Shown in pieces: positions 16,352 through 59,098 of a stretch of 64,000 nucleotides of DNA. Source of the DNA: Myxococcota bacterium. Lineage in GTDB: Bacteria; Myxococcota; Kuafuiibacteriia; Kuafuiibacteriales; Kuafuiibacteriaceae. Location of the stretch: NCBI GenBank assembly GCA_965223435.1, contig CBDCWQ010000023.1, positions 790,694-854,693 of the forward strand, given 5' to 3'. A program made the position numbers and the translations under genes. Every line of letters begins with the position of its first letter. The first letter of the stretch is position 1. The notes under the pieces are model-generated. The model saw only the letters and a program-made list of their open reading frames with translations, was not told the origin of the DNA and ran no database searches.

Positions 16352-19300
16352 TCAATCCCCATCGGGGGCCGATGTCGGGTTGGGTTCATCGAGGAGCCAG
16401 TAGTTCCATTCTTCCACGGATTGGTTGGGGGTGAAATACATCCGGCCGTTCGGGTATGTTGCATCTTCTTTCCAAAACCGGAGGATCTGGACCGTGTCTG
16501 GACCGTTCAGGGTGGCGATGTAGAGGGCTCGTTCGTCGTCGTCTTGGAGGGTGCGGTGCATGAATGCGTTGATGGGGTTGAAAGTGTTGATCGCGGCGGC
16601 TTGGGGTTCAAAGCCGAGGGCGGCTCGGTGCTGTGGATTGAGCGCCGTCTCTTGGGGATTGAGGGGTGTTTGTCCAGCTTGAGGCATCCGAAGATGTTCT
16701 TTCCATTGGTCTTCCAAAAAGCGAAGATACGATTCGAGGGTGACCGTCGGTTTGGGGCCTGGGGCCAGTTCGAAGGGGCTTAGGTCCTTCAGCACATCTT
16801 TGAGGAGCACGCGGTCCACCTGCCAGTCCGAACTCATGAATATCTGGATGGCCTCGGCCTCGAACTCGAACGTGTTCCCGTCGGCTTTGGCGATGGCAGG
16901 CACAAACGCAAGAAAAAGAGCGGTCCCGAAGAGCGCGGCGCCGGTCTGACCCGACATGACGCGGAAAGCCTCCTCTGGGTCCTTTTTCTTGATGGCCAAT
17001 AGATCAATGCTTCGGTACGGAAGGAAAACGTCGTCGATGACTTTGGCGACGCCAAACGCATCGTCAAACTGTGTTTGCATGGCGTCGATCACGCGCGCAG
17101 CGCTCGTCTTTTCGATGGGGACCCGGCACACGCGGCACGCGGGGACGAAGTAGGTTTGACCAAGCGTCATGGAGAGCAAGGCGTTTTCGAGGCGCACGAA
17201 GGGCTGTGAGGGTTGATAGAGTCGTTTGGTTTCGAACAATGCGCCCGCCGAAGGGTCTGGGATCACGTCGATGATGGCAAAAGGCCCGGGAAATTTCGCT
17301 TCGTGGATTTCGGGGTCCAAGGTGTTTGGGTTCTCCTCCGGCGGGCCCCAGCGTGGGCGAATGTTGGGCCCGAACAGACCTTCAGCGAATGCGGAAAAAC
17401 CGATGAGTACCGGGCCTCCTTTGCCGGTTTCTGGGTTGACCGTGTGGAGGGGAACCCAGAGTCCTGCCTTTTCCTTGGCCGGGGACAGCTCCTCTTTGTG
17501 CAGAGCGTACAGTTTTTCGATGATGGCTGCGGTGCTGCGCTCAGGATACGGCGTAAGGGCTTGATCGACAACCGGGTGAATGTTCATGAGGTCGTGTCGC
17601 GCCTCGTAAAAATTCGTTTGTACCGCCTGCACCATATCCTTGTTGGTTCCTAAGAAGACGGACGCGAGTCCAGCAAAGTTCCGGAGGATAAAAGTTTGGG
17701 CACGATTTTTTGGACTGGTAAGCCGTTTATGCTCTTTGAGGCTGGTCGGAATCGCTGTCGAATAGACATACATGCCCGAGACGCGCAAAAGCGCGGCCAG
17801 GGTCATGAGCTGCGTGCTTTTTCCGTAGCCGTCTCCAAGTTGGGGTTCTTTGGGGGGAACGACACCGATCGGTTGTAACGGAAGCTCTGGCGAGGGATGA
17901 GCCGAGGCGTCCGGAAGCTTGGATGCCTCTTGCTTAAGCGTATCGGTGGACTCGGTTGGGTTTGAAGGGGGGGGCGAATCCTCCACGCCTGGGGCGTTTG
18001 CCATGTAGGTCACGGGGGGCGTGCGGAAGTGGGCGTAGCGTTCCGCTTCTTTTTGAGAGAACTCCCCGCGAATGGTGAGTTCAATCCAAAAGAGGATCTG
18101 TGCTTTCATGGCGTCCGGAAGAAAAGAAAGACTCTCTTCGGCTTTCTTCATACGAAGATGGTTCTTGACAAACGCAGCCAGGATGTCGCTTTGCGGGTGC
18201 GCACTTTTGAGCGCGTGGACTTCAAAGAGGGCGCCGTCCTCGAAGGTCAAGATCCCCAAGGACCCAAAGGGTGTTTGGTCTACGCCCATCCAATCGATGG
18301 TGACGTGGTAGATTCGGTCATCGTTCATGAGGATCGATGGCCCCAACAGTGGATCGCGTCCGAGATCGGTCGAGGTGTACACCGGAACCGTCGTGCGCAA
18401 CACGTCTTCGTCCTTGAGGTAGGTTCCAAACGGCGCGAGCAAGTCTTCCCCGCGCACCAAGCCAACCGGCTCCCATGCGTGCGGGCTGGGGGGCGCGCTC
18501 CCCACAAATACACCCAAAAGGCCGGGGTCGACCTCGAGCCCGAGGCTTGCGGCGTAGCTGAGTACGCTCGGGGCCACGGCCGTGACTGCAGCGAGTTCGG
18601 GCGGGAGAGCCAAAAGGTCGTCGAAGTGCCGGGCGAGTTCTTTCAGCACGAGCGTCCGCGACTTGGTCGCGATCACCCCTGGGGGCCCAAGGCCCGCCAA
18701 CTCGGTGGTGCCCAGCTTTTCGCTGTGTTTGGAAGAACTGCGGTCCTCGTCGTTGCTCGGCATGTTGTCCTCAGGGGTGAAGACGAACGACGACTTGGTG
18801 GTGTCTTTCTCGTCGGGAGGCAGGCGGGCTGCGTTTGCGAGGCGGTCGAAATCCGACTCGGTGATTCTTCCGGTTCGCATCATGAGGTGGACGCGAAGCG
18901 GCGTGAGACCGGCCGTTTCGGCCAAGTCGGGTAAATTGCCGCTGTGGTAGCGGTTGATGAAGCGACGCAGTTGCCGAACATTTTCTTGGAAGAAGGCGTA
19001 ATCCGCCTCGTCCGAAATAATGAACGCGCCCCCTGGTATCCATGTCGGCTGGGCATAGAGGAGTTGGTCCAGCGCGACTTGGGGAGAGATTGCCCCCGTA
19101 TGGAACCGGGGCGTCTTTTCGTGTTTTTCGATGGCTCTGAGCTCGATGGCCGTTCGATGCCAATAGTTGGGAGACGCAGAATTTTTGAGTGCAATCAGGT
19201 CAATTTCTGGTGTGAAGTAGTAGGGCGGTGTGACCGTGGTGACGGTTTTTTCAGCCGCCTGGGTCCATAGTCGGCGAAGTTTGTTCGACAGGGTGCCCCC

Positions 19301-22300
19301 CGCTTGGTCGGCCATGCTGTCTTCGTGTGCAAGCATGGCATAGATGGTGGATTCGCGTTTATCCGTCTCGTCCACATCGAGATTGCCGAACCGGGCAACG
19401 GAAAAATCACGTGGTCTGGGCATGGTGACCACCCGGGCGAGTTGTATCAGCTCGAAACCGAGATCGGTATTGGGGTGCTCGAGCGTGAGACTCGTGACCG
19501 GTTTGGGGCCCAGTCGTTTTTGAAGGGCAGCCTGAAAACCTTCGCTGGCCTCTTCACACGAGACGCCGACGAGAGGGCGAAGGTCTGGCGAGGTTCCGAG
19601 GAGTCGGGTTCCTTCGCAAAGGGTACGGAGTTCGTGGACGGTTTCGAGGAGGCGGTCTTCTTGGGGGGTGCTTAGGACGGTCTGGGGCCAGTCTCGAACC
19701 GAAACCTTTTGAACGTACAGGTCGTACGCCGAACCGATGTTCATCAAGCGGTGCAACAAAGTGTCGAACACATGGTCGTTTTGGTCAGACATCAAGAGCC
19801 CGGCCAGAGTCTCCGTGTAGCGGTAGCGGAGCCGATCGCGAACTTCATTGAGATCGGGGATGTTTACCCCGGAGGAGTCAGGAAGCCTGACATCAAGGTC
19901 GGCGAAGGCTGGGAGGTCGAACGGTTCGGTGCTGGGCGGTAAGGTGAAAAACATGTGGCCGGCGCCGTGTCCAAAAAGGCCGACGGGCTCTTCGAGGATG
20001 GCAAGGCCCGCGAGTTCGGTGATGCTTGGCGAGGCGCCGGGCACCAAGGATCCAAATTCGTGCCACGCGAGCTCCTCAAGCCGGGCATCGAGGCGGGCAG
20101 CGGCCCTTTGGGCGAGGACCGGCAGCAGTGGGCTTTGGAGCAAGTTGCTGTCCGCGGACCAAGCGGGGGCGGCATCGGGTGCCTCGTTTTCAGCGACCCA
20201 GGTTATGGCCTCTTTCCAACGAAACAATACGGTTTCGCTCATGGACTGCGAGTGGAATAGAGCCAGGGCGTAGAGCGCCGCGGTGCCTCGGTGGACCACG
20301 TCTGATTCCACTTTCGTCGTGGTGCCGTCTGGAAGCAGCTGGAGGAAAGGAATCAGCCGCCCACGCTCGGCATCCCAAAAGTCGTTCACGATGGCCACAT
20401 ACAGTTCATCGGCCCACCGCATGAGGAAGTGCGCCGTTTCTCGATCCCCATGGAACAAGATAGAGCCGAGGTGTTTAACCGATACCCAGGCAAATATGTG
20501 GTCCGTCAAAGAAAGAATTGGGGTGCGCGGGAAGCCGGTTTTCTCATGGAGGATCGGTGGGGTCTCAAGCTCTAGGGATCTTTTCTCGAGGCCTAAGGCG
20601 CTCCGGGCTGCTGTTGGGTCTCCACCTTCGGTCAGAAGGCGCCCGTCGCTTTCGCTTACGCCGTAGAGGTCCCGAATCGAAAGGGCGAGGCGCGCCAGTT
20701 TCGCATTGATGGCGTCGGTCCATTTGAAATATTGTTCGTATGATGACAGGGCGTACAGGGCGAGAAACTGCATACCGGTTTGGTAGTAGGGCTCGATGGC
20801 GGTGCCGGTTTCGCTGTCGAAGAAATACGGAAACTGGAGATATTCTTCCCCATCGTAGGTCCGGGTTTCGAGGGCGGACATAAGGGCCTTGGACCACTCG
20901 CGGAACCAGGTTGAGTCTGATCCGACCCGATTCAGGTGAATCCGCTGTCGCCGCTGGCGGGCGGCAAAGATCGCCAGGGCTTGGTCCTCAAGAAGGGTGA
21001 CGGGGCGCTCGCTTTTGGCAAGACGCCGCGAAACCACCGGGCCCACCGCGGCCGTGTCTCCGCGCAGGCTGTCCTCGACCCCGCCGAGCCCTTGGGAAAT
21101 GTCGATGATTTCGTACCGATGATGTCCGCCGAAGCGGTGGTGAAACGACCAAACGCCCGCGCCCGCGGTCCACGGGAGGTGCTCCCAACCGCGATAGTCC
21201 CCGAAGCGGTAGACCGAACTTGCGCGGATATGGGGGGCGGTGGGAGACATGAGACGGGCAACCGGAACGGCCTGGATATCTGCCTTGGTAGAGGGCAGGT
21301 TGTGGATGGGCTCGGGTTCTACGCCCGGGGGTGGGACGTCGGTCCATTGACCGTCCTCTCGTTGATACAGGGGGCGGTTGCCGGGGGCCGTGGGGGCCCA
21401 CCCCTCTTCGTCGATGGTGGGGTTTGGAAAGCCTTCTTGTCCCGCCGGGTACGCGAACTCGAATTCCCCAGAGTCGCCGACGTGGTAGAGCGATACAAAC
21501 CATTCGACGTCGTCGATGATCAGGGTGAGCATCAGCGTGCGCGCGCTTCCAGGAGGATCACGGACGCGGCCCTTCAAGACAATCTCGACCTCGTCAAACA
21601 GCCCCCAAGGATTCAGGTGCGACAACAGGCCTTCCGGGGGACGTTTGCGCGCAAAGGCTTCGACCCAGACGGCGGTGGTGTTCACGGGAACGTCGGCGAT
21701 CTCGGTCATGGGAGGGGCGTCACCCCCGGGCACCTGTCGGATGGACGAGGTGGCCAGGCGTTCGTGGCCGGCTTCCGTGATCCATAGGCGCACGCGATAT
21801 TGCGCCGGGTCACCCTCACCGATGTAGGCGCCCCAGGCCGGGTCTCGCCGCCCGTCTTCGAGGCGGGGACCGGCGTAGGCCGTGAACAGGCGGTCTTCAA
21901 AGTTGTGAAGGGCGCGGCCCTTAAGCGCTTCCCAAGCGTCGTCGATGACGGTCTGGGCGCGACGCACATCGACGCCGCGGGCATAGTTGGCGAGAGGCCG
22001 GTCGAGGTCGCGGACGCCACCTTGAATTTCGTCGTAGACGTCGATGAACCAAATGGCGGCCGTGCTGGAGTCGAGTACCGTCATCAGGTCTTGCATCCGG
22101 CGGCTCGAATAAGGGAAGCCGTGGTCTCGAACGAAACGGTTCATGTCGGTGTACAGCACGTCGAGCTCTTGGGCGAAAGCGGAAGATTGTTCGCGCTCGG
22201 GGTGGGCGTCGACGAATCGTTTGAGGCCCAAGATGAGGCCGGCGGTGGCCTCCAAGTGGTACAGGGTTTCGTGGTCGTTGCTGGGGGTGATGTAGGGGTC

Positions 22301-25300
22301 AGAGAACGAATTGGGAAAGTAGTGGGTGCCTCGGTACGTTTGCCCTTGGTAGGGCAGTTCTTTGACAAAGGCGGCGATGGTGTAGTCGAGACACTGCTCG
22401 AGTTTGGTGATGTGGTCCTCTTCGAGGCTCGGATAGTCTACGGACAACGAGAGCCAGCTGCAGTTGTCGATGGCCGAGACCGGGCTCGGGTGAAAGCTTT
22501 GACCCTCAAAGTGGCCCCCGGTGATGAACCGTTCGTTTGCTGGATCCCAGAGTTTGTCGAAGATCGCGTCTCGTAATCGGTTTCGCCAGCGTTTCAGGGC
22601 GTCCTCGAAGGGGTGGTATTCCGGTTTGGCCCGACTTCGGATGGTCTCCCAGTGTTTCAGGGCGTGGTTGAGAACGCTCAGCTGATCCAGATTGTGCTCG
22701 GTCACCACGTGGGTTGCAGGGGTGGGCACCTTGAGTGCGTCGAAATCCGCAGCGGTGAGGGTTCGGGGCTCAAGGATTGACTGCGGGTCGCCGGGGGCGA
22801 ACCGAGACACCACCGGGGGATCCTCGGGATTGTAGCGGCGGTATCCGATGGCATCGAGGACCTCGTAGTAAGCCCAGCCGATGCCTGGTTCTTCGAGGCC
22901 CAGGATGTGGGGCTCGTCTTGGTTCACCAACCCCAAGGTGGTTCGGCCTGCGGTCATAAGGCCCGCGTTTTGGTGCGGCTCCAGTCCTCGGAGTGCTTCG
23001 AAGTAGCAAGCGACGAGTGATTCTTGGCCGTCTTTGTTGAGGTCCAAAAAGGCGCGGTGGGTGATGAAGGTTCCGAGGCCGTGAACCGCCCAGGCATTGG
23101 CGCCGGTGACCAAGCGGGCATCGGCCCAGTCATCGGACCGCGTGTTCCATGAAAAAGGCCAGCCGAAGATCACGGCTTCGCCGTCGCCGTTTTGGCCTCG
23201 CTCGGCGTGTTGGCACAAGAAGTGGGCGAGGGGTGCGGCTCGGGGATCGCGGGTTCGGGTGTATTGCGCGAGGGCAATGCCCTGGGTGTAGGTCCATACC
23301 CGGTCAAATTCGGCCAAATAGCGGGTGTCGTCGTTGTCCTCGTCACCCAGGTATTCGAGCTGGGCGCCGAGTTCAGGGTTGAATAGGGCGTCGCGGAGGG
23401 TTTGGGCGCGGGCATGGTTTCCCGCGGCGCTCGGTGCTTCGAGCATAGGCGCTTCAGAAGAAGTCGCCAGTTCGGCATGCGGTGTGGGCGAGCTGGCGGG
23501 ACCGTCCACTTCCGCCGCCGCCAAGTGAACCCAGGGGTGCGCTTGCCTGAGCGCTTCCAGCGCAGCAGGTGTGGGCGCGCCGTGAGGAGAGGCCTCGGCC
23601 CAGATGGCTTGGTGCGGAGGCGTCTTCGCGTCGGTGGGTGCGCACCGATTGCTCAGCATGTGAAACGCGTCCACACATTCGATGGCCCCCGGCGTCGACT
23701 GGCCGCTCGCGGTGCGGGAAGGCGCGGTCAAGACGAAGCGCGCGGTCTCGGGCTCGGGCGTGATTCGGGCTCGGGTGGTCACGATGCGTGGGGCGTCATG
23801 TTCTCCCTTGGGGGCTTCGACCCAAGTCGCCAGGAGCAGACCTTGGTGGCTGACCACTCTGGGGGCGTTTTCGAGCCGATCTGCACCCTGGCCGTGGCTT
23901 CGGTGGTGGATGGGTTGTGCCTGTTGACCGCTCAGCAGGTGGGGCCGTGGCGTGGAAGGTTCGCCTTTTTGGGGCATGACCAGAGCCTGGATCGACCCCG
24001 GCTGGCCTGCGTTGCCCGCCTGGTAAAACACCGCCGCGCGGGTGTCGTCGGCGGCGAAGGCAGCGTCGGGAAGATAACCTTGAGCCCACTTTTCCGGGGA
24101 CGACCAGCTTTGACCGCGGTCCAAAGAGCGGGCCACCATCAATGGGTTGCCGGTGGCGGCGTTCGGATTGTGTGACGGGCCCTTTTCGTAGATGACCGTC
24201 AGCTGGCCGCCCTTGTTTCCAGAGACCTTGGGGTACGCGGGGCCCCATTCGGCGAGGGGTAAGGACGTCGATGGGTCATCACACGACACCGAGGCGGTCT
24301 CTTGGCGGTCGAACGTGTCGACCCGGTTGATCCGCCAGCGCAAAAAAGTGTCGTCCTTCCATACCCCTTGGCGCCATCCTTCTTCGACTTCGCGTTCTTC
24401 GTCGACCACGTGGACAAAGTTCCCCACCAGTTTGGGAACCCGGACGGTCTTTGTTGTGACTCGGGACCACGCATTTGGGCTCAAAGGCCGCTGCGCAACC
24501 TTGATGTGGTCTCGTTCGTCCCAGCTCCCCTCGACCAGATAGAAGGTTCGGCTTGGGTCCGCTTCACGCCACTGGTTGTCCATTCCGTTGCAGTCCAAAG
24601 CGTGGCGCCGGAGGGCCTGCCGGAATCCCTCGGGGCGCGCCACCGCGCCGAGCAGGGGGCATGCGAGCGCCTTTTCGGGCGTACGGGGCCCCGCCAACTG
24701 CCGATAGGGGCCAAAGCGTCCTGCCCAGTTTGGGTTTTTGACCGGTCGGTTGTCGAAGCTGCGGGTCTGACGGACGGCAATGGTGATCTGCTGGTCATCG
24801 AGGTGTAAAGACGGATGCTCCACGTAGTTTCTCTCGGTCCGTTCGAGGTAAAGACCAAAAGGCGCCCCCCCGTTTTGGGGGTTGGGCTCAAGGGCGAGGC
24901 TGTAGGATTCGGGAACGGGTTCAAGACAGTCGCAGGCATGGTCGTCGGTGCAGTTCGATGCGGGGTACAGCCGCCGGTAACGAACGACCTCGTCGTTGAT
25001 GGATCTTTTGGTTTCGTCAAACACGCTTCTTGGGGGACCTTCGAGGTTCTTGACGTAGAGCGCGCGGTGCGCTTCCCCCCAAACCAAGTGGAGGTCTCCG
25101 TGGATATCGATGCCGACGTCGATGCCGCGTTTCCATCCGGTGCTCTCGTGGACGACCATGGGCGTTTCGTCAAAGCCATAGCCCGCTTCTTGGCTTTGAA
25201 TGGCGTACACCCGGCTCTTGGCAGGTCCTTCGTCGGGGCCGCGTTCTTGGATCGCCAACCACACGATGGCGACCGCCTCCCGATGGGCGGCGATGGCCAC

Positions 25301-26878: not shown

Positions 26879-27024
26879 GTCCGCACCCGAAAGCTACCGG
26901 TGGGGCGGTGTCAAGAGGCATGGCGAGAGATCAGAACGGTGAGGTGGGTTTCCCCTTCTGAGAAGCGCGCGCGGGCAAATTCTCAATCGTCGCGCTTTTC
27001 AGATCGAGGAGCAGAAAAATGGGG

Positions 27025-27870
27025 TCATGAGGCTCCCGCTGCGGTCCGGTCGATTTGTTTCTTGATGGTTTCTTCGATAAAGACCCTGTTTGAGAGGGTC
27101 ACCGTGCCTGTGTCTTGCTCGAGGACGACTGCGGTTGGGGTGATGGAACGGAGGGTTCCTGTTTCGCCTTTGACCTCGATGGTGTCACCGATTCGGAATA
27201 CCTTTCTCGCATAAAATCCGGCGAGCATGTTGCGGGTGATGTCGCGGGTCCCCAGCCCAAAAGAAAGGCCAAAGGCAAGCGCTGCCCCGGCGAGAATTCC
27301 GGCGGACAGCAAACGGATGATATCGGTGTCAAGTTTGAGCTGGCCAACGGCCATCACACCGATGACAAAGATGATTCCGCCCGATACGATGTTGCCCAGC
27401 GAAGAGGCAAAATCAATCCCCGCGTTTTTGGCGTTTTGGGTGATGATACGACCGGAAAATTGCGCTGCCGTACCGCCGAAAACCAAGATCACGATGGCGG
27501 CACCCAGGTTAGGGAGATAGCCCAGGAATGACCCGATGGCCTCTGAAATGACCGTGAGCCCCAAAGCGTCGCATGCGGTTCGGGTAAACAAGACCAGCAA
27601 CAAGAAATAAACAACTCGAGGGACCAGTTCGCTCAGCTGGGACCGAACGCCCATGCGATCGATCATTTGTCGGATGCCTACTTTGGCTGAAAGGCTATCG
27701 ATTTTGATGCGGGCCAGAACCACCTGGAAAACCCGCGCGATGATTTTTGCCACGAACAGCGCGCCAATAAACAGGAGGATTCCCGTTGCGATTTTGGGGA
27801 TCCACGCGGCAGCGGTCTCGAAAAACTCAGTGAATGACGAAGTGAGGCTGTTGATAACCTTGTCGAGCAT
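27025..27870 (-). CDS. MscS-family mechanosensitive channel-like membrane protein.
   Basis: Multiple TM helices. C-terminal 'IGDTIEVKGETGTLRSITPTAVVLEQDTGTVTLSNRVF' MscS beta-domain signature. Start MLDKVIN at ATG 27870 (the track ORF extends to 27924). Confidence 0.7.
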   Translation of the reverse strand: MLDKVINSLTSSFTEFFETAAAWIPKIATGILLFIGALFVAKIIARVFQVVLARIKIDSLSAKVGIRQMIDRMGVRSQLSELVPRVVYFLLLVLFTRTACDALGLTVISEAIGSFLGYLPNLGAAIVILVFGGTAAQFSGRIITQNAKNAGIDFASSLGNIVSGGIIFVIGVMAVGQLKLDTDIIRLLSAGILAGAALAFGLSFGLGTRDITRNMLAGFYARKVFRIGDTIEVKGETGTLRSITPTAVVLEQDTGTVTLSNRVFIEETIKKQIDRTAAGAS

Positions 27871-27872
27871 GT

Positions 27873-28100
27873 TTATCCTTTGGGGTCTGTGCGTTGAAAA
27901 CCGAGTGCTTCGAAGAGGGTACAAACGTACTCTACCAAGACCTTGGTCCAGCCGTGGTAGGGCACCTCGGCGATTTGCGAAGCGAGTTGTCGTCTGAAGA
28001 TCGTCCGACGAACGCGCTCTACAAAACGTGCCTCGGGGAGATCCTCGAGGGCTTTGAGATCGAGGGGGCGGTCCGTCCCGTTGTCCAAGTCGTCCGTCAT
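27873..28100 (-). CDS. Small 75-aa protein encoded directly downstream of the ECF sigma factor. Candidate anti-sigma/regulatory partner.
   Basis: Start overlaps the sigma-gene stop (TGATG). No recognisable motif; assignment is by genomic context only. Confidence 0.3.
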   Translation of the reverse strand: MTDDLDNGTDRPLDLKALEDLPEARFVERVRRTIFRRQLASQIAEVPYHGWTKVLVEYVCTLFEALGFQRTDPKG

Positions 28101-31239: not shown

Positions 31240-31245
31240 ACGCCC

Positions 31246-31262
31246 CTGATCCATGGGATCAG
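31246..31262. terminator. Short inverted repeat (ctgatcc-atg-ggatcag) in the 19-bp gap between the convergent GT2 and giant-paralog-B stops.
   Basis: 7-bp stem. The only intergenic sequence between two convergent stop codons. Confidence 0.25.
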
Positions 31263-43543: not shown

Positions 43544-43585
43544 GGGGGGTCTTTCTCCTAAAAGACATATGTGGGTCCTGGTCAT

Positions 43586-49800: not shown

Positions 49801-52800
49801 AGTGTGAATGAACTGTCGAAGTTGAGTGCTCCGCACTTGCTTTTCGGCGCTGAGGGGCCAAAGGGGCGGATCCACCGGCACTCCAAGCGCGCTGAACTGA
49901 ACGTGATGGCGGGCGGGCGTTTTTAAGGCGAGGCGAAGCGCGACGTGGGTGGGGAGCCAGTAGGCCAAAGAAGCCGGTGAAAACGCCTCAATGGGATCTA
50001 TTCCGCTGAGTTCGAAGTGTATCGGCTGCTTGTCCTCGCGCGCCCGGGTCAGCGCGTTTTCGACCACGTGGACCAACCGGGCGCGGACGGTCTTTTGGAT
50101 CCCTTCGAGCGAAGCGTCGGGGGGAATCACAGAACTTGTATGGTCTTCAAAGAGGCGGTGGATGCCTTGCCAGCGGTTGGGTGCGGTCCGGAGCTTGAGA
50201 CCGCTTGGTTCTGGCAGAGCGCCGACCACGGGGTCCGTCAGGCGGACCAGATCATTCAACCTAAGAAGGTCCTCTTCGTGATCGTAAGGCAAGATCTCAA
50301 CGAGCTGGTCGGGTGAGGTGCCCGTGCGCGCTCTCAGGAGATGGGCGACGGCGTTTTCAACGACCGCACACGCTTGGGGCGTGCCCAAAAACGCATCCAA
50401 CGAAACCGACGCCTCGGCGAGGAGGTCAGCCTCCTGGGCACACAGGGCAAAAAGGTCGTGTACCGTTTCCCGAACGCGGTCCGAAAACCCGCTTGCACTC
50501 AGTTTTCTTGCCCACGCCTCTGGGGGCGTGGGCCCGCCGCCCGTGGAGCCGAACGCCAGCTGTTTGAGACCAAAATGGATTCTTACCAGCTGCCGGAAAA
50601 GTTCGTCAAAGCGGTGGGCCTCGAAGTCGGACGCCAAAAGGGCGCCCAGGGTCTCCACCATCTTCACCTTGAGACGGTCTTCGAGGGCAAGCCAGGACTC
50701 TGACCTCCGCACCGGTGGACGAGGGTTGGCGCTGACCAGGGCGGGCCCGGCCTGCACGCCCAAAAAGCCCGACGGTTGATGAACAAGGCGCGCGGCGATT
50801 TGGGCCGCGGGGTCGGGGGCTTCGAGGTTTCTGAGGGCGCTCAGCTCCACGAGCGCCAGGGCCTCCTGCCGCGAATCGATCCCCCGCACGCCGCGCCTTG
50901 CCAACGGGACGCCGATGAGATCTAGCCAGGCCAGGGGCTCGGCGCCGCCTTCCCCCGTGCTCTGGGAAAAGGATTGGGGCGCATGCGTGCGGGCGAATGC
51001 GAGCGCGTCGAGAAGGGCGAGGGCCTTGCCCGGCGCTTGGGCATCGAGAAAAAACAACGAGCAGAGGGCATAGGTGCTTGGCCCGTCAGCCTCAACGGAG
51101 GCGCCTTCCCGGAAAACTCTCTTGATGGGTCGGGTGCCCCCTTCGTTCCCGCAAAGCTCGGCGAGGCGTGCCCCGATTCGCTCAGCCCAATCCAAAAACA
51201 CGGGCTCTTGTGGCGAAGCCTCCTTCAGGGCGAAATAAGCGAGGACGTTATCGTCCACGTCGGCGTGGGCCGCGTCCGGGAGGGCGTGGAAGAGGCCCTG
51301 GTCGTGCCCCACCTCGTGTTCTCCTCGGCCCGGCGATAGGCCGCCGTCTGGCAACTGGTGTCCGAGGTCATGGCGGAAGGCCTGGCTTTCAAGAAACAAA
51401 AGTTCGGCTCGGAGCAAGGATTGGGCCTGGGATGCAAGGTCGGGCTCAACACCGTTCAGTTTCGAAAAGGCAGCGATGGCACCGAGCGCAACCATCTTTT
51501 GGCCGAGTGTGACTGCAGATCCGAGTCCCTCCGCCTCGCTGGGCTCGGCCTCCGAGGTGGGGGCTGGGGCCGACGACCGGGCCGCGAGAGGGGCCGTGAG
51601 GGCCAAGCTTTTGAACCACTTGGCCGCGGCGGATGGGTCGTGGTCTTTGCTCGCCGCCCAAAGGGCCAGCGCTTGGGTCTCGAAGGTTGGCGATGAGGAG
51701 CCTTCGCCGTTTGATGGTCCCTCCTTGAGGAACGCGTCGATCCGGGTGTGCGCAGCGTTCACGAAACGTGCGGTTTCTTTGACCCCGATGCCGAGCGCGT
51801 AGTGCGCAAGCGGCCCGTCGCTCCGGTCCTTTTTGGGTTGAAGATGATCGTGCACATCCATGAACCACACGATGGCGGTGCTGGAGTAGAGGCGGGTGGA
51901 TAGATCCTGGATGCGTTGACTCGAGTAGGGAAAGCCGTGGTCGCGCACAAACCGCTGGGACTCTGCCCAGAGGGTGTGCGCAAGCGTTTCGTATTCTGTT
52001 GCCCGCCGGTGCTCCGGGTGGGCGTCCTTGAACTGAAGCAGGCCCATGATGAGCCCCATGGTTGCTTCAAGGTGATAGGACGATGTCTGGAGCACGCTCG
52101 GGGCGATGTAGAGGTCGCGAAAGTCGTTTTGAAAGTAGTGGGCTCCGGTATAGGTCCCGTTCTGGTTCGGACATGCCCCTTCTTGGTCCCCAAGGCAAAA
52201 ACCGAGTTCTTTGACGTAACGAATGACGGTGTATTGGAGGCACCGGTCGAGCTTTTGAACGTATTCGGTGTCTGTCCCTTCGGAACGCTCTGGCGTCAGA
52301 TCGCGGTAGTCGACGGAGAGGGATAGCCAGCTGCAATTGTCGATGGCCGAGTGGTGGCTTTGCCCGGTCAGGGCGTACAGCGGTTCTAGGTCCCCTTGAC
52401 CAGAGGACAGCGCCGCCTGGTTGGCTTTTGGGGTCAGGTCTCCTTGGCTCCCCGTCACCATTCGTCCCAGGGGGCGTTCGGAGTCGAGGGCTTCACGCAT
52501 CGCACGCGCTTCGTTTGTATTGGGGTTCTGGGCGATGGTGGCTTCAAATTCTTGGATCCAGCCCGTTTCGTCCCAAAGTAAAGTGAAGATGCCCCTTCGA
52601 AGTTTGTCGCGCCAGCGCTCCAGGTGTTCTTGGTTTAGGTCTTGGGTTTGATTCAGGCCGAGGGCGCTTGCGTGGTCGAGGGCGTGGTTCAGTACACTCA
52701 GGACGTCGAGGTTGTGTTCAGTCACCACGTTGAGGGCATGGTCCTCCTGTTTCAGGGCCTGCCACTCGGTTTTGGTCAGCAACTTCCATTTCCATACGTC

Positions 52801-55800
52801 TTCGTTGCTGGTGCGGTGCGCGGCACACGCATCGTCGAGGTCACAGACTTTTACGCTGGGTTCAAAGTCGGGGTCGTAGTGGTCGTAGCCGATGACGTCG
52901 AGTACGCTGTAGTAGCCTAGGCGCCCCTGTCGGCTGACGCTGAGGCCCAACGTGTGAGGCTTCGAAGCGTGCCGCAGTCCCCGAGTCGTCCAGCCCGCGC
53001 TCATCAGATAGACCTCTTGGCCGCCTTCGGTATGAAGCTTTCGGCGATGGCGTAGGAGTCCTCGCAAAGACATTTCGTAGCAGCGCTTGAGCCAGTTTTG
53101 GTCCTGGTTCATGGCGTCGTAGGCCAAAGAGCTCAAGAAAACGCCCAAACCATGGACCGCCCACGCTGTCGCTCCAGTGACCAAGCGAGCGTCTCGCCAA
53201 TGGTCCCCCTGGGTGTTCCACGAAAAATGCCAGCCCTTCAGTTCGTTGTCGTGCTGGGCGTCGAGGACCGCTTGGGCGCACAGACTGCGCGCAAGCCCCT
53301 GTGCGCGCCGCTGGGCGTCGGGGTCCCCTTCTCGGGAGGCTTGGGCGAGGGCGATACCCATGGTGTACGCCCACACCCGCTTGTAGCCAGCGAGGTGCTG
53401 GGCATCTTGGGCATCAGGCGATGTTGAAACGTCGTCGGTGCCGGCTGCTTCCCATCGTTCTTGTTTGGCACGCTCGACTTCATTTGGGCGATACTCCACG
53501 AGATAGAGTCCGGTCGTCCCTTCAGGAACAAAGCGATCCTTGTAAAAATACTCGGTGGTCCTTTGGGGCGCTTGCTCATCGGCATTTTTTTCGTTTGCCT
53601 CTTCGGGCGCCAGCGATAGGTCGGTTCGAAGTAGGGCCTTTCGCTCGCTCCAGGCGCGTGCGTAGTTTGCACTGACACCGCTTGTTTCGGGTTCAGCCAA
53701 TCTGAGGTCTACATGGGCATTGTCAAAGGTGACGACGCTTGCCGCGGCCGCGCCCGGGGCAAGGGTGAATTCGATTTGCCCTTGAAAGGGGGCGATTTGG
53801 GGCGGCGGGCTCCCTGTGGCCTCGGAGGCGGGCGCCAAGACACTGGTTTCGGAGCTTTTTGGAACGTCTTTGTATACCGCCACGTGATCCCCATTCACGG
53901 CCCGGACTGTGGCCTGAACGGCGTGGTTGCTGACGCCAAGACTCGGCCTTATGGTTGTCGAGACCTGCCGCACTTCGTTGTCCCATGATGCCCGGGTTGC
54001 AAAGATGCGTTCGAATTGCTCGTTGGTCGCCCCATCTCCCGCGAACGTGACGACGGCCAGGGTGCCCAGGGTTTGGACCGCTGGGACGGCAAAGTAGCTG
54101 TCCTCGTAGGTCGTTCGGGCTTCGGCGTGTGAGCCTTGTGGGTTCAAGTGAGGCGGCTTGACCGGATAGTGGCGTGCACTTCGCGGATCTTGGCTCAGTT
54201 CGCCAAGGGTCCATGTCTCACCGCCGTCGGGGCTCTTGGCCAGCATAAGCTTTGCCGACGGTTTTGGGGTTGAGTCGGTGGGTGCGCGCGGCGCGCCATA
54301 GGCCACCAACAGGGCTCCGTCAGAGGCGACGGCGATGTCTGGCATGTAACCCCTCAGATCCTCGGCACCGGCGCGCAATCGATGCGGTGAGGACCATGTG
54401 AGGCCGCCATCGTCAGATTGCGCCATGTGGATGGCATTCCCGTTCGGTTGATTTGCGTTGGATGACGAACCTTTTTCGTACACGACAACGAGCTCGCCGC
54501 CCGGTGTCGATACGAGGTGGGGGTAGGAAGGGCGCTCCTGGTGATCTTTTTTGGTGACGGTATCGATGGTCGAGATGCGCCAGGGTTGTGTTTTGGATGC
54601 TTGCTCAGCGCGGACTTTGTCTTTTGGCCCCAGCGGACTTTGAAGGGGGCGCATGGCGATTTTGATGTGGTCGTCCTCGTGCCAGGTCCCTTCATAAAGA
54701 TATTGCCACTGGTGACCGATGTGTTCCCACAAAAGTCTATCGCCGGATTCGTAGTGTTTTTTCCATGTTTCTCGCCATCCGACAACGTGTCGCGTGGGTC
54801 TGGGTTGATAGGTGATGGACGCACCGAACACTGGATCTTTCGCCATGCGCAGCCACGCGGGGTTTTCGACGGGTTTGTCGTCCCAGGCGCGAAACTGGCG
54901 CGCCACGATGTAGACCGCGCGGTCGTCCACCCACAGTGAGGGCGCATAGGCGTAGCTGTTTTCTAACCAGTCGATGTGGGTCGCCTCGGCGTCTTCGTTT
55001 TCGCCCAAAACATACGATTCTTCGCACCAGCAATGCGCGCAACGACACTCGCCGTTCACCGGCTCATATTGCACTTTGTATTGGACGACTTCTCGAGCAG
55101 GCCGGCGCCTCGGAACATCAAACACGCTGAGTCGATGGTGGTCTTGCTTCTGGCCGAGCGTCTTGCTCTCTTCTTCCTCGAAATCTCTTGCGTAATAAAT
55201 CTTGTTGCCTTCATTCCACACCATATGGTGGTGCCCGAACCCATCGAAGGCCATCGAAAGGTCTCGTTTCCATTCTCGACTGACACGGTCCGACCAGACT
55301 TCAAAAAAGCGATCGTCGCTTTTGTCTTTTTCCCATACCTGAATATGATGCTCGCCTTTTTCGTTCTGCTCGATAAAGCCGACGAGGACGCGACTGGGGG
55401 TCGCGGCGACGGCGACATCGGTGATCGTCTGCCCGCGTTTGGGTTCGAGGACCCAGGCGCGATGGACAAAGCTGCCCGGAGCCCCACTGATTTCGCTTCT
55501 TCGGTACGCGATGGCGTCCTGGTTTTCTTGGCCGGGGCGACGGACGATGTAGGCGAGGTGCAGGTGCTTTTTTTGCCCGTGTTGGCTGAGTGCGGTTTTG
55601 GGCAACAAGGTACGGTGTTCGACCGGAGTGACCGGGAACGGGGGTTCGAATTCGCCGAGAGCCATGACCGCTTGGGGTTCCACCACCGATTGTACGACAG
55701 CGGTCGAGGGCATGGACCATGGAGCCGTTTGAGATGGGGTCTGAACCACGGCCTGGACCGAGTAGCGATATTCGCCATACGCAGGCACGGTTTCGCTGTG

Positions 55801-57444
55801 GTGGGCCTTGGTGGTTTCGGTGATGCGTGGATGGCCCCAAGAAGTGCGCTCGGTTGCGGCCGACTCTCGGGTCACCCGGTACCGAAGTTGCATCCCCGGC
55901 GGAATTCTTGCCCCGCTTTCGAAAAGTGCGGGGGGCGTCCACGCGAGGACGAGTGACTTTCGGGCGTGGGCGGCAGCCAGCTCCGTGGGGGGGCTTGGCG
56001 GGGAGGTGAACTGGGGTTCGGTTTCGTAGCGGACCGTGACCTCTTGATGGCTCTGGTTTCCCGCCTGGTCGGTTGCCTCCAAGCGGATCTGGTTTTCGCC
56101 TGGCTTCAATGGAATGAGACTCCGGAAGGTTCCATCTTCTTGCACGTGAACCGCTTCGGGCGGGGTGCCGGGCGTGTGATGTTGAAGGGCCCCAAGAAAG
56201 GGTTCCGCCACGCGGCCGTGAAGAATAAAGGGGCTTTCGGTAGCCAGGACGGTTTTGGGACTTCCGAGCACAAGGCGAGGAGCGGTTTGGTCGAGGATGA
56301 CCGTCACCACGTGTTGCGTGCGCTGACCGTTCTTGCCTTCGGCGACGACCCGTAAGGTATTTTCTCCGTCCGCAAGGCGAAGCAAAGACCGAAAGGGCCC
56401 TGGGCGTGTGGTCAAGGTGATACCATCGAGGTGCACCCAAGCCAGGTCGCGGCCTTCGGCGGTGCCCTCGATCCAGAACTGCGGTTCGCGGGTATGGGTG
56501 ACCGGGCTTGGGGGCGACAACAGGGTGAGCACCAGCGGTGGGTGGTCTTGAGGGGGCTGGGTTCGCAGGGGGTCGGGGGTTGGGCCACCGGATACCTTTT
56601 TCGGTGGGGGCTCGTAGAACACGTGTTTTTCTAGAATGCGTCGATTCTGGGCGTGGTCGACAGCTTCAAGAACGATGTGATTGGGCCCCGGTTCTAGACG
56701 GACCATCTGGATGAAGCTGCTGCTTGCTTCGTGGACCCGTACCCGATTGATGTAAAGGCCTAGAAGGTTGGGGTCTTCGACGGTGCCCTCAAGGCGTAAC
56801 CACCGTTGGTCGGTGCGTACATTTTTGGCGGAGGGTGAAAAAACGAAGAGGGCAGGGGCGTGTGCATCGCGGGGGTTTTGGGCAGCGTGGTGGGGTTGGG
56901 CCTCGGCCCAATAGGCGACTCCAGGCTCAAGAAGGTCTCCCGGTTTCATGCGAACGTAGTGGTTTGCTTCCGTATCCCAAGCCAAGAGCCGAGAAGCGTC
57001 GGAGTCCTCGTAGGGGCGTCTTTTCTGTGGGCTCACATGAATCCAGGGTGTGCTCGAAGGGGAGCGCGGCCCGGTATCGGTCACAAGTTGGCCTTCGATG
57101 CTCAGTTCGATGTCCCGGTGGGACCAAACCCAAGTGCCTGCGTAGGGATCAAGTGCTTCACGGGTTCCTTCGCCCGTTTCTGGGGGGCTTCGGAGATGAC
57201 CGTCGGGCTGTGTTGCCGAGGGCCAGGCCGATAGGCCGTGCGCCTCGAGTGCGTTCAGGGGAATGTGGGGGTCGACAAATGGGAAGTTACTCAGATTCCA
57301 GCCCTGTTTCAGTCGATAAACAATCTTTGTTGAAGACGGACCGGCCTTTGTGTCGGGTGGCAACAAGGCTGCGGTTGCGAGGACCGCCGCCCCCACCAAG
57401 TATCGAACGCGTGTCCTATCGGACACCATGCGCCGAGCTTTCAT
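43858..57444 (-). CDS. Giant secreted protein paralog C, 4528 aa. Signal peptide, Ig-like repeats, FN3-like, BNR/Asp-box (AQSDDGGLTWSSP, AKSPDGGETWTLG), conserved helical core, degenerate subtilisin (S8)-like domain, ~690-aa unique C-terminus.
   Basis: Single uninterrupted ORF. MKARRMVSDRTRVRYLVGAAVLATAALLPP signal peptide. Shared core motifs with A and B. S8-like 'ITIFVAAGNDG' (~45968-45990) and 'GTTFASPHAAALG' (~45745-45790). Confidence 0.8.
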   Translation of the reverse strand: MKARRMVSDRTRVRYLVGAAVLATAALLPPDTKAGPSSTKIVYRLKQGWNLSNFPFVDPHIPLNALEAHGLSAWPSATQPDGHLRSPPETGEGTREALDPYAGTWVWSHRDIELSIEGQLVTDTGPRSPSSTPWIHVSPQKRRPYEDSDASRLLAWDTEANHYVRMKPGDLLEPGVAYWAEAQPHHAAQNPRDAHAPALFVFSPSAKNVRTDQRWLRLEGTVEDPNLLGLYINRVRVHEASSSFIQMVRLEPGPNHIVLEAVDHAQNRRILEKHVFYEPPPKKVSGGPTPDPLRTQPPQDHPPLVLTLLSPPSPVTHTREPQFWIEGTAEGRDLAWVHLDGITLTTRPGPFRSLLRLADGENTLRVVAEGKNGQRTQHVVTVILDQTAPRLVLGSPKTVLATESPFILHGRVAEPFLGALQHHTPGTPPEAVHVQEDGTFRSLIPLKPGENQIRLEATDQAGNQSHQEVTVRYETEPQFTSPPSPPTELAAAHARKSLVLAWTPPALFESGARIPPGMQLRYRVTRESAATERTSWGHPRITETTKAHHSETVPAYGEYRYSVQAVVQTPSQTAPWSMPSTAVVQSVVEPQAVMALGEFEPPFPVTPVEHRTLLPKTALSQHGQKKHLHLAYIVRRPGQENQDAIAYRRSEISGAPGSFVHRAWVLEPKRGQTITDVAVAATPSRVLVGFIEQNEKGEHHIQVWEKDKSDDRFFEVWSDRVSREWKRDLSMAFDGFGHHHMVWNEGNKIYYARDFEEEESKTLGQKQDHHRLSVFDVPRRRPAREVVQYKVQYEPVNGECRCAHCWCEESYVLGENEDAEATHIDWLENSYAYAPSLWVDDRAVYIVARQFRAWDDKPVENPAWLRMAKDPVFGASITYQPRPTRHVVGWRETWKKHYESGDRLLWEHIGHQWQYLYEGTWHEDDHIKIAMRPLQSPLGPKDKVRAEQASKTQPWRISTIDTVTKKDHQERPSYPHLVSTPGGELVVVYEKGSSSNANQPNGNAIHMAQSDDGGLTWSSPHRLRAGAEDLRGYMPDIAVASDGALLVAYGAPRAPTDSTPKPSAKLMLAKSPDGGETWTLGELSQDPRSARHYPVKPPHLNPQGSHAEARTTYEDSYFAVPAVQTLGTLAVVTFAGDGATNEQFERIFATRASWDNEVRQVSTTIRPSLGVSNHAVQATVRAVNGDHVAVYKDVPKSSETSVLAPASEATGSPPPQIAPFQGQIEFTLAPGAAAASVVTFDNAHVDLRLAEPETSGVSANYARAWSERKALLRTDLSLAPEEANEKNADEQAPQRTTEYFYKDRFVPEGTTGLYLVEYRPNEVERAKQERWEAAGTDDVSTSPDAQDAQHLAGYKRVWAYTMGIALAQASREGDPDAQRRAQGLARSLCAQAVLDAQHDNELKGWHFSWNTQGDHWRDARLVTGATAWAVHGLGVFLSSLAYDAMNQDQNWLKRCYEMSLRGLLRHRRKLHTEGGQEVYLMSAGWTTRGLRHASKPHTLGLSVSRQGRLGYYSVLDVIGYDHYDPDFEPSVKVCDLDDACAAHRTSNEDVWKWKLLTKTEWQALKQEDHALNVVTEHNLDVLSVLNHALDHASALGLNQTQDLNQEHLERWRDKLRRGIFTLLWDETGWIQEFEATIAQNPNTNEARAMREALDSERPLGRMVTGSQGDLTPKANQAALSSGQGDLEPLYALTGQSHHSAIDNCSWLSLSVDYRDLTPERSEGTDTEYVQKLDRCLQYTVIRYVKELGFCLGDQEGACPNQNGTYTGAHYFQNDFRDLYIAPSVLQTSSYHLEATMGLIMGLLQFKDAHPEHRRATEYETLAHTLWAESQRFVRDHGFPYSSQRIQDLSTRLYSSTAIVWFMDVHDHLQPKKDRSDGPLAHYALGIGVKETARFVNAAHTRIDAFLKEGPSNGEGSSSPTFETQALALWAASKDHDPSAAAKWFKSLALTAPLAARSSAPAPTSEAEPSEAEGLGSAVTLGQKMVALGAIAAFSKLNGVEPDLASQAQSLLRAELLFLESQAFRHDLGHQLPDGGLSPGRGEHEVGHDQGLFHALPDAAHADVDDNVLAYFALKEASPQEPVFLDWAERIGARLAELCGNEGGTRPIKRVFREGASVEADGPSTYALCSLFFLDAQAPGKALALLDALAFARTHAPQSFSQSTGEGGAEPLAWLDLIGVPLARRGVRGIDSRQEALALVELSALRNLEAPDPAAQIAARLVHQPSGFLGVQAGPALVSANPRPPVRRSESWLALEDRLKVKMVETLGALLASDFEAHRFDELFRQLVRIHFGLKQLAFGSTGGGPTPPEAWARKLSASGFSDRVRETVHDLFALCAQEADLLAEASVSLDAFLGTPQACAVVENAVAHLLRARTGTSPDQLVEILPYDHEEDLLRLNDLVRLTDPVVGALPEPSGLKLRTAPNRWQGIHRLFEDHTSSVIPPDASLEGIQKTVRARLVHVVENALTRAREDKQPIHFELSGIDPIEAFSPASLAYWLPTHVALRLALKTPARHHVQFSALGVPVDPPLWPLSAEKQVRSTQLRQFIHTFGEGRLVPFSHRIAMRPGWLHSRLRQGVLSTADFDMLVDGHAGGQAHALGPSTQDAWRNRLSPVDDDRAHRASVLGAGFGAPWAPWFIGSLAVWDAAPDRALSVLSHPQTSTPGDLFGFLGSPEESALAVAFSTDFQFGPLEKGLVEVTIPEKDPPIPENKQNLLCSYDAGLLQGAHHDVYARRSQGDAGVFHAQLFAINDKPTHFHFTPVGKAGVALQGSYVITPPVPGLPFSCVLMQPSSPGMPQEPSVHAPKAWTPHLADVHVTAEFQSQHVFGIGIAPKETVVHTRFVLDDDTPITSVEAFVFKKSTAHGGVHDAIRFLLRDISAGEQTHAVGAFHTGAFFHEDKSILGQPWPEYVRAAGRGEPLWISLRLRQNDGTTFDTTPVEIRGSAPTGDDLGTLGNEAELWSLSGLGEPGLGRPNTAWAMTEDAVYENMEVVPEVLRIKAPVDGAATQCFIALKDGALEVDHQFIHPDDEARVLVWVSRYPTQHLEHGAREGANICVSTEPWRLLGLPVPSTYTLPIRLRNKATGYEVERSIEISLGENRDESSLKEALTEPKPLAPIGEWAFEKNTRDSTGHYAPGVFPMGPMPAWRYEAGVGGRGHAYRPSTSPIAYGAIQVPSPKDALRFGGDESFSISVWLNPARTLTEDGVVVGNRDEAGQGFELRVMTDHRAAFLVTNPLGTPTAHTLISVDALRPGEWNHVAVTWEGPIQEGLLYVNGIANASMNLSFYPSWPGLEEAGPLAIGGHWGAKAVSHVFDGLIDQLQIYGQALSVEAAEKLAGEYQNHIAHLAAWMRPSPELLELFEAFTPNPNAGRDEGVTVLEDVSSANVARVKAIKQSMKGTYAGLQRLILQDASLAAAVLPFALPAGAIMAGQADVGLETMVVFEEAPSSAWVEVGSVQAGEIVREAVFFDDKTGVGLFFEDEETIRSHREFDTQAGTQRPFEDGRIYGFDARHLPEILPLRGIVPESGGGTLDLSIPDLPRILGDDGRVKVFALDTTHSRGEVIDNFLRHHQWWQAMLEIAAHLPSAALQEGFLRWGRAFLLGWFFDAKTAERAVKVDRNDQGKRPSWWLDAAGYSSLSEKKASPFTRQETGEAIPLVDSQQEGGTAVIKPAPFGTAPPPIKTVRLFGTNKAKATIGIIERSFTVPNSKDLMTEDPHAIHGFLVRRALEFEYTRLAKLAGHDPYDASFLGFMAPFNVDVPEAVRLATKLRTDFNNHQGGERISVLNISLDSSFANANKFRAWLNDDFLAAVREARAAGITIFVAAGNDGKPLEDVHPNAKALSDYVIFVTALNSFGPSQRASLRDYANTGPSVKLAAAGRSAVACAEDAERCGTTFASPHAAALGLVLDLEALSHKTQARPIEIEQALVQTSLSLDELLGSGIVQPMLAIGLIRAAAAKSPFTERPLIYLLDRVSPEPPQRTGTTFEAGSITTTYLYGPPPSSLSDVLAEPERFIDVVLFKREARDPFEVLTGEEIDQAIKRNALTVAEDEDGFSFTFESNKDATVEKLIAQVENLPHKTYGIPSTKLNTLASNYRFSGMVRVSPDALTDKRMAKVRDLHQPRVNIRYNVVQVYDRKQKFFIVFSPKNSFWGLIPREDRIITGYTASSDGQLTSKDKQELDELFNHTDQSVIRLVSGESVKPQARTRDGKFHELEVAVSSDPLENAISLEHLYRGDTPGSGPGAAGFSERKVYINRAPLTDVELEVTGVVHGKPIAQIFLKGFVPQSLYAAFPVMNGSGWQHPKVAVFPKESQVVVSMSGTGDPTVDENAVQEIFQRLPDQPYVRVVMPNRSVVYYTPTLDHFVGESYAAADPLAAFDKGLARLRQAESRNLAFKPTSHLDPSNLTLEKQISALTTLIEDLRRLRSATMTTSLKKDIEQPLTAVTTDGHLAVEKYFAFLRTTPNEKIRISVPLQKDLKDKLEAHWAPFTEPLLELLEAEHIRSPRFEKLVPEIDALIQTLENIVWALKVVHR
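45700..46450 (-). other. Subtilase (S8)-like domain inside paralog C with non-canonical catalytic residues.
   Basis: Oxyanion-hole motif AAGNDG is present. The Ser motif reads GTTFASPH (Thr where GTSxAxPH has Ser). The putative Asp region reads IGIIERS (Glu instead of Asp). Confidence 0.5.
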
Positions 57445-59062: not shown

Positions 59063-59098
59063 CTTCTTACTCCGTGTTTTAGAGCCATGCCAAGCTTC

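Follow-up and report, generated by a model that had tools for sequence, protein, structure and literature searches.

A 64,000-nucleotide stretch of Myxococcota bacterium DNA (assembly GCA_965223435.1, contig CBDCWQ010000023.1, positions 790,694 to 854,693; here called the window, in whose numbering all gene and domain positions are given) carries three giant genes, A, B and C. On the evidence of their alignments, the three products are anciently diverged paralogues of one giant secreted protein family. Each contains an (alpha/alpha)6 barrel (barrel 1) with a pocket of polar residues that is almost invariant across the family and a sequence that matches no entry in Pfam or NCBIfam. We lean towards reading A, B and C as surface-tethered, multi-domain glycan-processing proteins that carry a new six-hairpin family.

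Three giant paralogues with one domain order

The open reading frames (ORFs) of A, B and C extend without a stop over 3508, 4108 and 4528 amino acids (aa), all on the minus strand, as are all of their domains described below. Chance cannot yield ORFs of 10-13.6 kb, and A, B and C all have homologues elsewhere. Gene A lies at 16352..26878, with a probable start at M12 (26845) that gives a protein of 3497 aa identical to the database entry P0014. Gene B (31259..43585) probably starts at M15 (43543), giving 4094 aa, and gene C (43858..57444) encodes 4528 aa and corresponds to P0025. An initial annotation, made from the sequence alone, had placed three uninterrupted same-strand frames of 3508, about 4094 and 4528 aa at these limits, and we found them there. 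It also described a tandem array filling about 64% of the window: C and B are indeed adjacent, with a 272-bp gap that holds no terminator-like site, but A and B are separated by 4.4 kb with three other genes, and the 64% is the overall span of the array, whereas the ORFs combined make up 57%.

Pairwise BLASTP aligned A with B at 31.7% identity over 2657 aa, A with C at 29.8% over 1632 aa plus two more segments, and B with C at 32.3% over 1755 aa plus a segment of 789 aa; all E-values lie between 1e-156 and 0. The proposal that the three are collinear paralogues is therefore borne out, at 30-32% identity over 1,600-2,650 aa, and every motif block quoted in its support is present (HLVWGE..K.YY.KNLEG, the Cys clusters, DNCSWLSLSVDY, YHLEAT, GFPYSS and RLVTGANAWAVHGLG). 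The order of domains common to A, B and C is signal peptide, Ig-like, FN3-like, propeller, barrel 1, barrel 2 with a helical domain, and a modular tail. Each paralogue is 38-42% identical to a different protein of other assemblies, compared to 30-32% among the three themselves; being nearer to proteins of other genomes than to their own neighbours, they represent old lineages. We considered and rejected recent tandem duplication based on these nearest relatives in other genomes and on the tandem-repeat search, which found no tandem DNA repeats inside the giant genes. A three-way alignment was most conserved at A 1179-1660, B 1499-2030 and C 1336-1915, the segment that corresponds to barrel 1.

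Inspection of the N-termini revealed signal peptides on all three proteins and lipoboxes in two, in agreement with the initial annotation. A (from M12) and B (from M15) each have a basic n-region, a hydrophobic core and a lipobox Cys (..LLLALFLG-C49 and ..AIGLSA-C39), so that lipoprotein signal peptides span aa 12-49 of A (lipobox LFLG-C49; 26732..26845) and aa 15-39 of B (lipobox GLSA-C39; 43469..43543), while C has an ordinary Sec-type signal peptide with no lipobox (aa 1-35; 57340..57444). A continues with a domain bearing a GWxLL motif (aa ~55-235; 26174..26716) with which the short relatives P0001, P0005 and P0009 also begin. Ig-like repeats of the Glucodextran_B family were detected by Pfam three times in B (aa ~100-580; 41846..43288) and three times in C (aa ~190-480; 56005..56877), and A has a single weak Glucodextran_B-like domain (aa ~247-332; 25883..26140) with an E-value of 8e-4 that is under the Pfam cut-off. 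An FN3-like domain, recognized from its sequence pattern (in A W..P / YR.YR / Y..VTAV), follows in each protein, at aa ~335-470 of A (25469..25876), aa 580-722 of B (41420..41848) and aa 485-629 of C (55558..55992).

Beyond these modules the three proteins are largely dark to annotation libraries. Scans with Pfam and NCBIfam returned no match for A, only the Glucodextran_B Ig-like repeats for B, and three Glucodextran_B repeats, LamG_3, a weak BNR_2 and a partial Peptidase_S8 for C. Sequence searches against Protein Data Bank (PDB) chains returned nothing for A and B and only marginal sialidase, subtilisin and LamG matches for C.

A conserved six-hairpin barrel and its companion domains

Barrel 1 is the most conserved core of the family and spans aa 1179-1660 of A (21899..23344) and, by alignment, aa 1499-2030 of B (37496..39091) and aa 1336-1915 of C (51700..53439). 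We aligned this core with 13 short homologues and predicted its structure, obtaining a confident model (predicted local distance difference test, pLDDT, 86.7; predicted template-modelling score, pTM, 0.84). The model contains the twelve-helix alpha/alpha toroid by which the six-hairpin, or (alpha/alpha)6, superfamily is defined. Its fold matches, all at sequence identities of 7-12%, include PssZ and GH8 endoglucanases, and Foldseek was concordant, with E-values of about 1e-6 and template-modelling (TM) scores of about 0.45-0.5. At the sequence level, a profile of the barrel 1 family searched against all PDB sequences found nothing relevant at E<=10, Pfam gave no match at E<=5 for barrel 1, barrel 2 or the stand-alone homologues, and NCBIfam gave none for the core. 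Judged from the model, barrel 1 is a known fold in an unnamed sequence family of the six-hairpin superfamily. The initial annotation had called the helical core either six-hairpin-like or novel and recognized no named family in it, and each of these statements holds; hidden Markov model (HMM) searches likewise show no well-annotated adhesin or hydrolase family.

We next looked at conservation within the barrel. In 157 family members, whose identity is otherwise ~25-40%, 74 positions of barrel 1 reach at least 95% conservation. About 16 of these are charged or polar residues, comprising D1184, R1193, N1245, D1249, D1253, R1255, E1394 and H1395 together with N1396, D1398, R1450, D1471, N1472, D1527, H1541 and E1543. 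The conserved motifs fall at helix starts in the model: YTQG, TGANAW and TEHNLD begin helices 18-30, 80-94 and 215-230, and DN.SW, (H)LEAT and S.T..W begin helices 292-301, 364-380 and 427-444. Enzymes of the (alpha/alpha)6 type build their active sites at these inner-helix ends. The invariant polar pocket predicted by the model is the strongest argument that barrel 1 may be a live catalytic site or a highly specific ligand site. In addition, barrel 1 exists on its own in proteins of ~400-800 aa with their own signal peptides, some of which carry the GWxLL N-terminal domain of A and C. Its occurrence as a stand-alone secreted protein indicates that the barrel is an autonomous functional unit.

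Enzymes of the AGE superfamily, including cellobiose 2-epimerase, mannose isomerase and YihS (4z4j, 5zig, 5x32 and 7ag4), share 8-11% identity with barrel 1, but these enzymes are cytoplasmic, measure ~400 aa and use free sugars as substrates, whereas here the barrel is embedded in a giant secreted protein. H1395, H1541, E1394 and E1543 are conserved in barrel 1, and there is no sequence match to an epimerase model. The (alpha/alpha)6 glycoside hydrolases (GHs; GH76, GH8, the GH15 glucoamylases and glucodextranases, GH63, GH88/105 and MmpH) are extracellular glycan cleavers, and glucodextranase likewise pairs its barrel with 'domain B' Ig-like modules, the sole Pfam family that recurs in the giants. 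Barrel 1 differs from these families in having no sequence-level membership in any of them and no catalytic acid/base pair identifiable by alignment. To our knowledge, two barrels combined with a propeller is not a described carbohydrate-active enzyme (CAZyme) architecture.

The region preceding barrel 1 resembles a BNR/sialidase-type beta-propeller and covers aa 479-1137 of A, including an insert with a Cys cluster (23468..25444), aa 722-1421 of B (39323..41422) and aa 629-1250 of C (53695..55560). A profile of the three paralogues matched GH33 sialidase and BNR-repeat structures over a partial alignment, with E-values from 6.5e-8 (for the GH33 structure 4fj6) to 1e-3. Canonical Asp-boxes (S-x-D-x-G-x-x-W) number one in A, none in B and two in C, so the BNR Asp-boxes of the initial annotation are real in A and C but absent in canonical form from B, and few overall. 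The resemblance to GH33/BNR proteins is thus one of profile matches and, in A and C, Asp-boxes. The giants depart from those proteins in the partial alignment, in a BNR_2 match under threshold, in large insertions, among them the Cys-rich one, that break up the propeller region, in the lack of a canonical Asp-box in B, and in having no evident FRIP-type motif, the region starting instead with a conserved Y-x-R-S. A word-indexed homology search with the propeller region gave no matches, in a search that returned no protein longer than ~830 aa and missed even the query's own entry. The Cys cluster within the insert (A aa ~648-652) is nearly invariant across the family: A, B and C all have C.C, which in C, as in many relatives, is lengthened to C.C..CWC. 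The cluster may bind a metal or form a disulphide knot.

A second (alpha/alpha)6 barrel, barrel 2, follows barrel 1 and precedes an all-helical domain of ~380 aa. The two together occupy aa 1950-2720 of A (18719..21031) and, by alignment, aa 2240-3000 of B (34586..36868) and aa 1890-2630 of C (49555..51777). Modelling of A 1950-2720, aligned with B, C and nine relatives, gave a pLDDT of 76 and a pTM of 0.82. Barrel 2 has few conserved polar residues and is far less conserved than barrel 1. We asked whether it is an internal duplicate of barrel 1 and rejected this, as hhalign gave a probability of only 17%. The end of the helical domain (A ~2640-2700, B ~2920-2980, C ~2560-2620) carries a strongly conserved motif, NV..LRRFIN..A.G.LP.LA..SG.....LH..MRTG.L.E.DF, that by eye is helix-turn-helix (HTH)-like, which is odd for a secreted protein; one relative has MarR/HTH Pfam matches somewhere along its sequence.

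These domains could also be read as structural. A, B and C might be adhesins or envelope or S-layer-like scaffolds that attach to surfaces, partner cells or prey, with the enzyme folds acting as binding or spacer modules that catalyse nothing. Adhesins are typically very long and equipped with features such as the Ig-like and FN3-like repeats and the LamG lectin seen here, the conserved polar residues of barrel 2 are few, and both enzyme-like modules in the tails look degenerate (GTT for GTS in C, and HExxH replaced by HQxxH in the relatives of B). The polar pocket of barrel 1, on the other hand, fits catalysis or very specific ligand binding and not a spacer, and the same barrel is found as a stand-alone secreted protein of ~430-600 aa. 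We therefore regard a purely structural role as unlikely.

Modular tails and a proposed glycan-processing role

Past the helical domain, the three proteins continue into tails that vary between paralogues and between orthologues, as the initial annotation had proposed for the C-terminal regions. Its further claim that the proteins diverge completely beyond the shared core did not survive comparison, given that the barrel 2 region follows in all three and that A and C share an additional module (A aa 2723-2949, 18032..18712, also in many relatives; C aa 3371-3640, 46525..47334, with counterparts in A and about 14 relatives). Each tail is built of several modules over a length of 560-1,900 aa, and many members reuse the same modules at the same relative position; among the best 150 members a median of 88% of a tail matches the tail of some other member. 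C-like orthologues share parts of the C tail, and A-like orthologues align with A only to residue ~2950. The remaining ~560 aa of A (aa 2950-3508; 16355..18031) have no domain match and almost no relatives among the listed family members, with faint overlap at aa ~2950-3040 only: close relatives of A show no high-scoring segment past aa 2955, and there is about one non-self match (P0142, to aa ~3036).

The B tail (aa 3001-4108; 31262..34585) contains the sequence HELTH at aa 3597-3601 (nucleotides 32783-32797), within a module at aa ~3530-3800 whose only other carriers are P0073 and P0133, relatives of 7.2 k aa. We rejected a zincin protease here, as the motif reads HQVTH or HQITH in these only two homologues and the module has no family match. 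A word-indexed search with the module gave no matches, with the same ceiling of ~830 aa on the proteins it returned. The C tail includes a LamG/concanavalin-like lectin domain (aa 3179-3327; 47464..47910; E 2e-22) and a divergent subtilase-like (S8) half-domain (aa 3777-3947; 45604..46116). The latter scores 26.1 in Pfam, above the cut-off of 21.8, with only the C-terminal half of the family aligning; the oxyanion Asn is kept and the nucleophile motif is GTT, not GTS. An active subtilase was rejected based on Thr in place of the catalytic Ser (GTTFASPH) and on the presence of a half-domain only, while the relatives P0124 and P0120 keep GTS.

Such tails invite comparison with polymorphic toxins (Rhs, CDI/CdiA, MafB, MARTX), which also combine a large conserved N-terminal part with variable C-termini in several paralogues. 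In this scheme, suggested by the initial annotation, a conserved N-terminal delivery scaffold would carry interchangeable toxic payloads. The modular tails, differing among paralogues and orthologues, would suit it, as would the last 560 aa of A, nearly all of it unmatched in the listed family members, and the presence of several paralogues per contig. Unlike those systems, A, B and C showed none of the defining repeats, toxin domains or immunity genes and no dedicated secretion partner. Pfam and NCBIfam scans of A, B, C and 12 relatives found no RHS/YD, haemagglutinin or MARTX repeats, as the initial annotation had itself noted, nor PT-TG or other trafficking repeats. Domain scans recognized no toxin family in the tails of A, B and C, whose two enzyme-like modules are degenerate. 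The genes 3' of the giants are glnII (after A), the convergent GT2 gene (after B) and gene B itself (after C), none of them a small immunity-like gene, and the window holds no dedicated secretion system. The tails are moreover long and multi-modular, not the short tips of toxins, and the conserved part consists of enzyme-like domains. Without immunity genes, RHS/FHA repeats or recognized toxin domains, a polymorphic-toxin or multi-effector system is not supported, and we consider it highly improbable.

Returning to glycan processing, a sialidase-like propeller together with two barrels of a sugar-enzyme fold makes this the most likely activity, in preference to a toxin, and the accessory domains with a carbohydrate link are the Glucodextran_B Ig repeats and LamG_3. 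We propose that the N-terminal signal peptide would export each protein, that an acylated Cys would tether A and B to a membrane, and that the Ig-like and FN3-like modules would serve as a stalk. The cassette, in which the propeller is joined to barrel 1, barrel 2 and the helical domain, would then act on a complex polysaccharide or glycoconjugate, with barrel 1 as the putative catalytic centre, and the modular tails (the LamG lectin, the subtilase-like module and others) might tune target binding or supply accessory activities.

Several points weigh against this proposal. The fold of barrel 1 is common to hydrolases, phosphorylases, epimerases/isomerases, lyase-like hydratases and terpene cyclases, so barrel 1 might perform any of several chemistries, and barrel 2 may be non-catalytic. 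The propeller match is carried mainly by the Asp-box blades, and the BNR_2 match in C, at 26.3 bits, falls short of the 31.4 cut-off. That the lipoproteins A and B are exposed at the surface is assumed, and the window contains no secretin, type II secretion system (T2SS) or polysaccharide-uptake genes.

Family distribution, genomic setting and significance

We determined the extent of the family with an exhaustive profile search of 1.84 billion representative sequences, which yielded 279 clusters at 50% identity, 207 of them at E<1e-30. Most members are 2,000-7,200 aa long (the longest seen has 7218 aa), and barrel 1 falls roughly between residues 1,000 and 2,000. Within the best 150 members, all have barrel 1, about 105 have the propeller region and 60-75 have barrel 2; one relative carries Amidase_2. 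Using equal contig size as a proxy for location on one contig, we found multiple members together: the window's own 2,023,055-bp contig holds A, B, C and a fourth member, P0133 (7218 aa), and contigs of 1,349,314, 1,379,488 and 1,185,363 bp hold six, four and three members. P0133, which appears to share a contig with A and C and lies outside the window, is the closest relative of the HExxH-containing module of B and has HQVTH.

Scans of GTDB representatives and JGI metagenomes added five and four loci, respectively. Two of the nine, L005 and L006, are long ORFs, the other seven being short or stand-alone. Stand-alone barrels were found in metagenome-assembled genomes (MAGs) of Omnitrophota, Verrucomicrobia and Kofleriaceae. 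The L005 ORF, of at least 6149 aa in the Omnitrophota MAG nzgw299, aligned with A, B and C at E 1e-80 to 7e-65 across the propeller and barrel 1, with homology also covering the FN3 region; L006 is a metagenomic ORF of at least 2932 aa. In a second locus of nzgw299 (L001, 2-17600), a truncated giant ORF (at least 2557 aa) is followed in turn by a GspD-type secretin, a 605-aa stand-alone barrel 1 protein and TolC/HlyD/AcrB efflux genes. This arrangement is conserved, with L002 having the same pattern of ORF sizes. In the Kofleriaceae MAG (L004, 6298-13151), a 434-aa stand-alone barrel 1 homologue is beside an MltA lytic transglycosylase and is also flanked by a pectin-acetylesterase-like protein and a protein with VWA and F5/8-type-C domains. 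These Omnitrophota and Kofleriaceae contexts are suggestive.

In published giant Omnitrophota proteins, structure prediction alone revealed folds like those of cellobiose 2-epimerase and GH76, and the proteins were suggested to degrade cell walls (West-Roberts et al. 2023, bioRxiv 10.1101/2023.11.21.568195). That study separates 'large' proteins of at least 10,000 aa from 'giant' ones of at least 30,000 aa, and related work treats giant extracellular Omnitrophota proteins (10.64898/2026.06.07.730766). A, B and C resemble these proteins in being very long, secreted and largely dark to HMM libraries, in their (alpha/alpha)6 folds and in a proposed attachment to and breakdown of cell-envelope glycans. 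Also in common are the L005 ORF, homologous to A, B and C, and the stand-alone barrel 1 genes near a secretin and a giant ORF. A, B and C differ in their length of 3508-4528 aa, far under these size classes, and in forming a compact, collinear, multi-paralogue family. Their export signals are of lipoprotein or Sec type, and within the window they have no type II or type IV secretion or pilus genes as neighbours, whereas a secretin is present in L001, and their host DNA has ~60% GC compared to 47-50% in the three Omnitrophota loci measured. Because of the Omnitrophota proposal, and because one such protein shares the cassette, the likeliest targets by analogy would be foreign cell-envelope glycans or exopolysaccharide (EPS).

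The genes between A and B suggest another substrate. By domain scan, this interval encodes an MscS-like channel (27025..27924, minus strand), an extracytoplasmic function (ECF)-type sigma factor (28100..28723, minus strand) and a double GT2 glycosyltransferase of EpsD/PgaC-like type that is convergent with B (29101..31239, plus strand). An EPS-type glycosyltransferase and an ECF sigma factor in this position raise the idea that the giants remodel the cell's own EPS or envelope glycan under ECF sigma control, as giant counterparts of BcsZ, PssZ and similar (alpha/alpha)6 hydrolases from EPS or cellulose operons. The fold matches of barrel 1 include PssZ and GH8 endoglucanases, and a lipoprotein anchor suits work in the periplasm or envelope. 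The GT2 gene is nonetheless convergent and outside any operon with the giants, no Wzx/Wzy, Wza or synthase-export genes lie within the window, and four to six large, variable-tailed paralogues per contig are too many for housekeeping trimming of one polymer. The giant-gene neighbourhood is also not conserved at the other loci examined, and we judge self-directed remodelling to be more doubtful still than a structural role. The ECF sigma factor gene next to the MscS-like membrane protein gene (27025-28723, minus strand) has no obvious anti-sigma gene beside it.

Other features of the window lie outside the giant genes. Directly downstream of A is a type II glutamine synthetase gene (glnII; 15120-16154, minus strand), adjoined by a gene for a secreted spondin-domain protein (NF038123; 13785-15029, plus strand). 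The gene pair immediately upstream of C (57911-59941, minus strand) encodes a di-haem enzyme of the MbnH family (TIGR04039, E 4e-151) along with a copper-binding protein of the MbnP family (TIGR04052, E 1e-83). The overlapping ORFs 717-1394 (plus strand) and 870-1469 (minus strand) contain a perfect tandem repeat of 72 bp (1082-1285; 2.8 copies at 100% identity), which would encode a repeated peptide that is Gly/Ser/Glu-rich on one strand and GFG-rich on the other. A perfect hexanucleotide repeat, (ACCTGG)x6.2 at 61763-61799, is located just downstream of an MFS transporter gene (60429-61721) and near the start of a response-regulator/GGDEF-EAL gene (61824-63953).

Giant secreted multi-domain proteins with glycan-related folds were already known; new here is a compact, distinct and unannotated family of them. 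It is sizeable, at 279 clusters and in multi-copy state, and yet searches of Pfam, NCBIfam and PDB sequences miss it. Barrel 1 offers a direct experimental entry: at only ~450 aa and naturally stand-alone, it should be expressible and assayable, and its ~16 near-invariant polar residues are ready targets for mutagenesis. Should it prove to be a glycosidase, barrel 1 would represent a new CAZyme family. As a bolder extension, which we consider rather unlikely, barrel 1 may found a new six-hairpin catalytic family of GH, lyase or polysaccharide-epimerase type, and the cassette may be the conserved engine of a hitherto unrecognized class of contact-dependent giant surface proteins that attack envelope glycans, common to this ~60% GC lineage and the Omnitrophota giants. 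Since an Omnitrophota giant ORF shares the cassette, chemistry solved here would bear on the role of those proteins, and, were the extension true, the Omnitrophota giants would gain their first tractable and testable catalytic module.

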